Below are positions 6,150 through 59,792 of a stretch of DNA of 64,000 nucleotides, piece after piece. Where the stretch lies: contig OX597814.1 of the NCBI GenBank assembly GCA_951406725.2, positions 174,840,001-174,904,000 on the forward strand, read 5' to 3'. Made by a program: the position numbers and the translations under genes. The notes beneath the pieces are model-generated. The model did not search any database and had not been told where the DNA came from. It worked only from the letters and a program-made list of their open reading frames with translations. Source of the DNA: Octopus vulgaris (Eukaryota). The first letter of the stretch is position 1; each line of letters opens with the position of its first letter.

Positions 6150-6539
6150 CTAGCAGTATCACCCAGCATTGCTCTGGTTTGTTTCGACCCTTTAGAATTG
6201 GAATTTTTGAAAAGTAAAAAGTTTGCATTATGTAGCTTGTTATTCTCTTTAAGTGAACATTTTTCTGGTTGAAATACACCAAAAAATGGCAACACAGCAG
6301 TCAAAAAATCATAAAAAATAAGGATTTTCATAGAAAAAAAGCACCTTTTTGATGTAAATAATTTTTGGTGTTAACATGGTCCGATTTGAATTTTATCTTC
6401 TATGGAATGAAGAGCAAGCCTTCTTCTATCATACTCTCAATTTTGGTCAACTTGTGCCGCAGGGTCTCGGAGGAGATAGCGTTAGTTGAAGGCTACCAAA
6501 CCTGCCACACACAGACAACTTCAGCTTTATATATACAGA
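6150..6539 (-). mobile_element. Non-autonomous Helitron, family 1
   Basis: On the minus strand: 5' A|TC start, degenerate subterminal GC-rich hairpin and 3' CTAG|T end; second copy at 43162-43530. Confidence 0.7.
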
Positions 6540-58025: not shown

Positions 58026-59445
58026 TTATTTCACATGTACTCATACTTCTAACTACTCAGCCATAGATATGATTTTATCATTGGCCTGTGTGAATATGAT
58101 TTGCATTGGAAATAGTAAATAAGGTGCATACTTGTGTACCATGCGAAGTAGTAACTAACATTTTGGACAAGGCTCTTTGTATTTGAAGAGATAACATTGG
58201 AGCTATGCTGCAAGAATGGAATCTTCAATAAGCTTAGTGTACAAACTTACCTTGCACTTCAGTATACAGCTATTCGGTTTTTATTTCTTTCGTTAGTTGT
58301 TTTCAAGTTATGTAGGAGCTGTCATAATTTTTGTTACAATGAGAAAGCCTCTCTACAGTCACTTGAAATAAAATCAAAGCTCCTTTAAATCACTTCTCAC
58401 TGTCTTAGAAAAGGACATGATGGATACTGAAGTCCCTGCAGATGGAGGTAAAAAAATGACAAGTTGGTCATGGCTAGCGTGTTTTTGATAATTGGTCTGC
58501 TTGACTTGGAGCTAAACAATACAGACCAGGTGGGTGATATATCAGAACATGTGATGTCAAAAGCATTTGCTCTAATCTCCCATCACTATTTATTATCATT
58601 ATCTTTTATGCAGTTATTCACAAAATATAGCAGCATTTCTCTTCTTTTACTGTTGTCAGTAAATTTACTGTATTTTTCGTACTCCTTTATGTTTTTGAAT
58701 CATAAAGACATTTTCTCCAAAGGTGGGATGCTATATTATTGCAGGCATGTTGCAATGAGAAAATTTAATACAGCATTACAAAACAAAAATAAGATATCAC
58801 CATGCAGTATCCAAGCTATTTACTTGAGTTTTATGAGCATTATCAGTAACATAGTACATAGGTAGTAACTGGAAAAGAATTGTTGAACTTCTAGACAGTA
58901 GGATAGCATCATAACATTTTAATAGATAATAATTCTCAATTTTCTTGATTTCTTTATTAATGTTAATTATTCAGGCGTTATCCTAGTAAAAAATATATAC
59001 TTAATAAATTCCATCCATATCAAGTTCTCTAGATTTCTTTATACAACAGACACCATCCATAAACATCTCATGCCTATACCAGCATACTCTGTACTTTCTT
59101 TGGTGAAAGATTTTAATTTAAAACTTATGAAAACAAGACATTTGTACTCAGAGCCAGAGCCGGTTTCAGCCAGGTTGGTGACAAAAGTGTTAATTTATTT
59201 TTAAAGTAACATTTAAAAATTCCATCTCTCTTATTTCATGAAAAATTTGAAAAGTACACTGTAAAGTGGTTGGTGTTAGAAAGGGCATCCAGCCCTAGAA
59301 ACCATGCCAAAACAGATATGGAGCTCAGGCAGCTCTTCAGCTGGCCAGCTCATGTCAAACCATCCGACCCATGCCAACATGGAAAATGGATGTTAACTGA
59401 TGATGATGTTACTTTTCTCTTAAGTAACAAAATAATTAATTAATA

Positions 59446-59654
59446 CAAACAGATGCAGCATGGATTTTTGTCAGTGAACAGGTCGCAGTCTTAAAGCGAT
59501 GAAAATATTTTGACAAATTAAATTTAAATATTGAAGTGAATCGTACAGCTTTTGTGTGTTTCTTAAATGGCTTACAAACGCCTTCCACGCTGCAATTGTT
59601 TTCATTTCAGCACACGATCTCGGATCAAATCACTTGCTATGCAAGTACATCTCC
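59446..59654 (+). mobile_element. 209-bp insertion flanked by a 14-bp direct repeat, carrying a hammerhead-like motif (retrozyme-like)
   Basis: ataattaattaata at 59432-59445 and 59655-59668; CpG-containing interior. Confidence 0.6.
59467..59517 (+). ncRNA. Variant minimal type I hammerhead ribozyme (G3:C8 core)
   Basis: tttgtca-GTGAACA-g-gtcgc(agtcttaaa)gcgat-GAAA-atat-T-T-tgacaaa: perfect 7-bp stem I, 5-bp stem II, palindromic AATATT stem III. Confidence 0.6.
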
Positions 59655-59718
59655 ATAATTAATTAATAGAGAGTGAGATAATACAGTTTTTACTTTAATA
59701 TAATTTTCTTTCTTGCAG

Positions 59719-59792
59719 CTTCGAGAAGAGAACTGTGAACTGCGCAAAGAACTTTGTAAAGCTCAGCAACAAGCAGCAAAAGAGGCAAATAG
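59719..59792 (+). CDS. ENTR1: ENTR1 coding exon 3 (LREENCELRKELCKAQQQAAKEANR; coiled coil)
   Basis: ttttctttcttgcag acceptor; AG|gtaagc donor; phase 0 in, phase 2 out. Confidence 0.9.

Follow-up and report, generated by a model that had tools for sequence, protein, structure and literature searches.

The insert and its host intron

The window, by which we mean the whole 64-kb stretch of Octopus vulgaris DNA that was analysed, contains an insert in an intron of a host gene (Table 1). As reported in the preliminary description, exact 14-bp repeats enclose 209 nt, and the next exon begins 208 nt 3′ of the cut site predicted below, close to the roughly 200 nt given earlier. The host gene may be ENTR1, a name that fits the motifs NPFS and LPDFVQDH in the upstream exons; the gene had no Pfam match, and its Atlas match (0.79) carried no name. 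In a contig from a run labelled organism C, the match to the host intron and exon begins only at position 59655, as expected of an empty site. At window positions 59466-59474, the G3 of the motif described below places CAG behind a T-run in the sense strand of the host intron, which could act as a cryptic acceptor 245 nt ahead of the true exon.

The insert occurs once in the window. The 3′ repeat shares its first 5 nt with the end of the element, and AACAG before ATG, as found here, also opens several other solo copies. The anatomy of the genomic copies, their linkage to an open reading frame (ORF), and the resemblance of 31 encoded residues to the N-terminus of a sister family identify the insert as the last 209 nt of a pseudo-LTR. 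Judged by sequence, it is the truncated end of a ~5-kb Penelope-like element (family A) and not a stand-alone small element. The small retroelement previously suggested as the carrier is thus upheld in its retroelement origin and not in its independence.

Table 1. Coordinates of the features discussed (window positions unless a locus or contig is named)
Feature	Position	Strand	Remarks
5′ copy of 14-bp AT-rich target-site duplication	59432..59445	+	exact repeat
5-nt linker	59446..59450	+	no match to pseudo-LTR
3′-terminal piece of family A pseudo-LTR	59451..59659	+	begins at the family's sharp 5′ boundary
Stem I, 7 bp	59467-59473/59511-59517	+	
Core GTGAACA	59474-59480	+	G3=59474, C8=59479
Extra nucleotide G after A9	59481	+	
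Stem II	59482-59486/59496-59500	+	loop II between; whole span 59482..59500
GAAA	59501-59504	+	
Palindrome AATATT	59504-59509	+	would form helix III between two ribozymes
U17	59510	+	
First 31 codons of the element's ORF	59567..59659	+	resembles N-terminus of intact sister-family ORF
Tail, ~60 nt between the family's two 3′ ends (putative reverse-transcription start sites)	59600..59659	+	
3′ copy of target-site duplication	59655..59668	+	exact repeat
Next host exon	59719..59792	+	covered without intron in one sequencing run presumed to be RNA
Sister-family hammerhead motifs	L154:1837-1870 and 6425-6458		
Tandem arrays of the G3:C8 unit	C2:17908242-17912921; also C22, C28, C15		

The carrier is a Penelope-like element

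Copies that extend upstream (526 exact matches) lead to an ORF with reverse transcriptase (RT) motifs, a linker zinc finger and a GIY-YIG domain. No full-length family A ORF was found; the longest open frame, 1025 aa at locus L145, includes YVDD and GIY-YIG, and in it Pfam PF01541 scored above the cut-off and RVT_1 gave only E 0.052. The ORF stop lies 967-1034 nt upstream of the ribozyme motif (12 arms), and the motif with G3 and C8 was present in all 8 ORF-bearing family A loci that we fetched. The translation also reads a CCHH motif in the endonuclease and, between RT and endonuclease, a CX2-5CxxC zinc finger, a Neptune trait shared with Nematis that is found in 66 of 83 relatives. We assigned the element to the Neptune/Nematis type of Penelope-like elements from these ORF motifs and domains rather than from an RT tree.

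The pseudo-LTR has partial tandems, inverted 5′ arms and a tail. We mapped the 3′ ends of 49 copies, picked by the core pattern alone: 24 end at query positions 219-237 and 24 at 160-180. Arms lie head to head at 23 of the 39 loci selected by the core pattern (20 of the 23 pair one long with one short arm), and TA repeats follow 36 of 60 3′ ends. The two 3′ ends, the head-to-head arms and the TA-repeat targets correspond to the Penelope signatures of PMC8557442 and PMC11167929.

At the 5′ boundary, a G precedes the equivalent of position 59451 in 24 of 37 short copies, where long copies carry C or T. An extra G is expected from copying a cap, although many of the short copies are inverted junctions, to which microhomology could contribute. 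The boundary also resembles a splice acceptor, with a CTAAC branch point, a pyrimidine tract and YAG (CAG in 34 and TAG in 8 of 43 copies), and may on this sequence context be a splice boundary rather than an RNA start. We looked for a spliceosomal intron in the pseudo-LTR and found the acceptor-like site before the piece, yet no copy with a clear spliced first exon. The dual initiator-like and acceptor-like character can be seen at 59446-59453 of the window, at L111:2150-2175 and at L146.

Three other loci were noted in this search. A same-strand pair of copies 3.45 kb apart, considered as a repeat-ORF-repeat arrangement, was rejected as a segmental duplication. Within the pseudo-LTR of another family A copy (L110:2220-3108) lies a transposase gene, mariner-like by its motifs. 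Locus L109:8550-9500 holds another Penelope-type ORF end with GIY-YIG-like motifs, which belongs to neither family A nor its sister family (family B).

A hammerhead-like motif with G3 and C8

The pseudo-LTR piece contains a minimal type-I hammerhead-like motif at 59467..59517 (+), with a predicted cut between 59510 and 59511. The stems, core, extra G, GAAA, AAUAUU palindrome and UUU triplet all lie where the preliminary description placed them. A three-way junction with stems I and II, GAAA and NUH is present; helix III is represented by the palindrome only. The consensus C3 and G8 are absent and are replaced by G3 and C8, so that positions 3 and 8 are Watson-Crick complementary, which counts as one event in a comparison whose rows were partly selected.

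We searched the window with a descriptor of the minimal type-I hammerhead that accepts any Watson-Crick 3:8 pair and requires at least 4 bp in stem II and at least 6 bp in stem I. The single match was 59467-59517, and the same descriptor found 1 match per 100 simulated 64-kb sequences. The folding energy of the motif is ordinary (z -1.5) and the predicted fold retains stems I and II. An Rfam scan gave no hammerhead match, from which it follows that CUGANGA-based models miss the motif, as had been anticipated.

Copy number and conservation of the core

The insert is a dispersed repeat in the Octopus vulgaris genome. A core pattern of 20 nt, with positions 3, 7 and 8 left free, had 7,079 exact matches, and the control had 0. 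Among the first 100 matches listed, G3 occurs in 97 and C8 in 98, and C3 together with G8 in none. Conservation of the two bases across genomic copies had been named earlier as the check to make: in 165 distinct copies from the fetched loci, G3 is present in 162 and C8 in 155, so that both are family-wide and not private mutations. Both are also kept in the ORF-linked copies. Position 11.1 (59500) is C in 140 of the 165 copies and T in the window copy, which identifies the G10.1·U11.1 closing stem II in the window as CpG decay. Within the motif, subfamilies differ in loop II, CpG sites and a change in T-run length aside. The spacer and the ORF start are conserved about as well as the core within the family, and conservation among copies is therefore no proof of selection by itself.

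We compared contigs from four other organisms (B to E), a comparison that captures reads at least 80% alike. No variant letter reaches 10% at 59474-59481 or 59501-59510; letters vary within loop II, at CpG sites and at a single position of stem I, where a G·U pair still forms. We also searched for other G3:C8 families in the octopus genome and obtained 209 matches against 83 for the control. None of the 100 listed was convincing: they were mutants of family A, an unrelated repeat, or unpaired chance matches. One small repeat (L333:1491-1542, with four similar matches) has GTGAACA and GAAA, and its poorly paired stem II leaves a reading as a G3:C8 hammerhead unsupported. In a pattern scan of metagenomes (120 loci), stem I closed only at chance level.

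The sister family and covariation of positions 3 and 8

Family B has intact frames of 1310 aa, 54.7% identical to family A over 815 aa, and its protein is 98.9% identical to a protein attributed to Octopus vulgaris. A C3:G8 motif lies ~110 nt before the start codon and has 3,222 exact matches in the genome. Position 9 of this motif is C in 96 and A in 3 of the first 100 matches listed, while the ORFs are intact. The family is young and abundant with C9, which suggests a relaxed need for catalysis and indicates that the core can decay in a thriving lineage.

Eight further minimal hammerhead motifs with C3:G8 and a related stem II occur in the genome (L071-L078), each apparently from an older, low-copy family. 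Two of them, L072 and L078, were considered as Penelope elements and set aside: the adjoining ORF-motif matches were weak (E 0.04 and 0.2) and on the other strand. We aligned 12 motifs (four from family A, one from the sister family and seven of the eight further motifs). The 3-8 pair is C-G eight times, G-C four times and never unpaired, although seven of the eight C-G rows were picked by a pattern that fixes C3 and G8, and those seven are not shown to be Penelope elements. Two core changes would hit exactly the paired positions and be complementary about once in 230 by chance, counted over 13 core positions. That the only two departures of the core fall on paired positions and complement each other is an argument for selection. 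In these alignments G3:C8 is a family-wide natural swap that arose in one evolutionary event, and the covarying pair proposed earlier is borne out by the homologous motifs, which carry C3:G8. The flip would have been retained since the 3-8 pair still mattered.

Tandem arrays of a 166-nt unit

A subfamily forms tandem arrays of 166 nt. Its units share one junction, which has 78 exact matches on four contigs, 28 of them in one array. The motif is intact in 18 of 19 units examined of the C2 array; the other arrays are more decayed (1 of 8, 8 of 15 and 1 of 6 units intact). Tandem units with an intact hammerhead, which characterize retrozymes, are thus found in one array and not in the window copy. 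Several arrays bear a Penelope tail or an inverted arm, which makes it likely that Penelope machinery copied them. The arrays provide natural dimer substrates, and they are relevant to the proposal that retrozymes arose from Penelope repeats.

Mechanism, activity and alternative explanations

The reading that we consider probable is that the insert derives from the end of a Penelope-like element and stands alone, and that its pseudo-LTR hammerhead, with G3:C8 throughout the family, is likely slow and requires either dimerization or the element's protein to cut. The element RNA would start at 59451. Reverse transcription would start inside this RNA ~150 or 210 nt downstream and copy back to the 5′ end, and a monomeric transcript would yield thousands of solo inserts of 150 or 210 nt with the ribozyme uncut. 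Transcription that reads through from a copy further upstream would be required for long copies. In the host intron, the window copy is probably carried along passively.

Catalysis by the G3:C8 motif is argued here from the literature and may be weak. Copies beginning at the cut site were not enriched: 63 were counted, compared with 152 at a control position 3 nt further along. This result and the loss of A9 in the sister family hint at weak activity. Stem-I microhomology explains 22 of the 63 cut-site starts, and control-site starts outside an A-to-G subfamily number 26 of the 100 listed and about 40 in all; the counts are uninformative on catalysis. In the energy model, closing helix III in a monomer costs ~6 kcal/mol, and a swapped dimer has about the same energy as two monomers.

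We weighed four other readings. The motif could be a catalytically dead relic in a family that spread without cleavage, with G3 and C8 fixed by drift or by a role at the level of DNA or splicing. G3 does make both an initiator-like word, TCAGT, and a CAG after a pyrimidine tract, the sister family thrives without A9, copies are not in excess at the cut site, and in the in vitro work of PMC11167929 insertion did not require cleavage. Such an overlapping role accounts for G3 but not for C8. The two changes complement each other exactly, and subfamilies and the four other organisms alike keep the remaining 11 core positions intact; we regard a dead relic as rather improbable. Another reading is a first natural, active G3:C8 hammerhead family, fixed in an octopus Penelope lineage in several species and invisible to CUGANGA searches, whose 166-nt offshoot would cleave as dimers into unit-length circles, a Penelope-derived retrozyme being born. 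This is conceivable, and we hold it as a tentative reading only.

The preliminary description also proposed that the ribozyme could cut the host pre-mRNA at 59510/59511. The insert does lie in the intron in sense orientation, and the predicted fold keeps stems I and II, but the copy is alone in 64 kb and, as a monomer, cannot close stem III at the modelled cost, and swapping strands into a dimer brings no benefit in the energy model. The window copy has moreover lost the G10.1-C11.1 pair, the insertion is apparently absent from a related organism, and minimal Penelope hammerheads had no monomer activity and were weak as dimers in the available part of PMC4209133. Because the copy is solo, cleavage of the host transcript is unlikely in this model, and self-cleavage that affects host processing seems to us very doubtful. 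Least credible of all is a view of the 209-nt insert as an independent element, either a non-autonomous SINE or a retrozyme that replicates through its own circles. Its sharp 5′ end, the thousands of short copies and the existence of the array subfamily would suit such an element, but the solo copies start 16 nt ahead of stem I and not at the cut site, terminate at one or the other of the autonomous element's two 3′ ends and contain the start of its ORF. Only the array subfamily is retrozyme-like, and even there Penelope tails and inverted arms occur. We retain the solo Penelope-like end-piece with a slow hammerhead as the preferred reading.

Comparison with known systems

By its motifs and copy number, the family is a natural, high-copy core variant; both the type of ribozyme and the type of element that carries it are already known. 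We found no natural G3:C8 hammerhead in the openly readable literature, only engineered variants, and priority is thus uncertain. Many Penelope-linked hammerhead variants were reportedly described by Lünse, Weinberg and Breaker in 2017. A family with thousands of copies in a single genome escapes hammerhead surveys that rely on CUGANGA, and the pair of sister families, with a compensated G3:C8 in one and an uncompensated C9 in the other, makes the role of Penelope hammerheads directly testable.

The element resembles Neptune and Nematis, as far as these are covered in the accessible part of PMC8557442, in having RT followed by a C-terminal GIY-YIG domain, the linker zinc finger, CCHH, a tail, inverted arms and microsatellite targets. 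Its tail is ~60 nt, compared with 30-40 in those elements. Tail, inverted arms and microsatellite bias are described for Penelope-like elements in PMC8557442 and a preprint, and two internal RT start sites for a Penelope element of the anole in PMC11167929. The 166-nt array is like the non-LTR retrozymes (PMC7229834; bioRxiv 10.64898/2026.07.22.740005, as available in part) in its derivation from a pseudo-LTR and its one hammerhead per unit. It differs from them in that its hammerhead is minimal with a G3:C8 core and is known from sequence alone; the window copy forms no array.

Penelope repeats carry a known class of hammerheads in which A9 is followed by an additional nucleotide and loop III is palindromic (Cervera and de la Peña 2014, PMC4209133). 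The octopus motif shares with them the position in the pseudo-LTR, an extra nucleotide between 9 and 10.1, G10.1-C11.1, the palindromic helix III and the predominance of solo copies. The extra nucleotide is G in the octopus family and H in their consensus. The core is G3:C8, unlike the rows in the examined supplement alignments of PMC4209133, which are C3:G8 and U3:A8, include none from octopus and lack G3:C8. Engineered C3G/G8C changes gave partial rescue (PMC11167929, PMC8495972 and PMC3884650, in the portions available), once in a Penelope hammerhead, that of PMC11167929, which needed protein to cut. These laboratory mutants have the identical core change; the octopus version is natural and has U17, which would avoid a G3-C17 version of the inactive 3-17 pairing discussed in PMC3884650. 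Natural U3:A8 hammerheads are known (Perreault 2011, PMC3088659, as far as accessible), and they share with the octopus family a natural covariation of the 3-8 pair. U3:A8 is a transition swap, whereas the octopus G3:C8 is a double transversion that needs an unpaired intermediate and would, if true, complete the set of 3-8 pairs known from nature, which so far has C-G and U-A.
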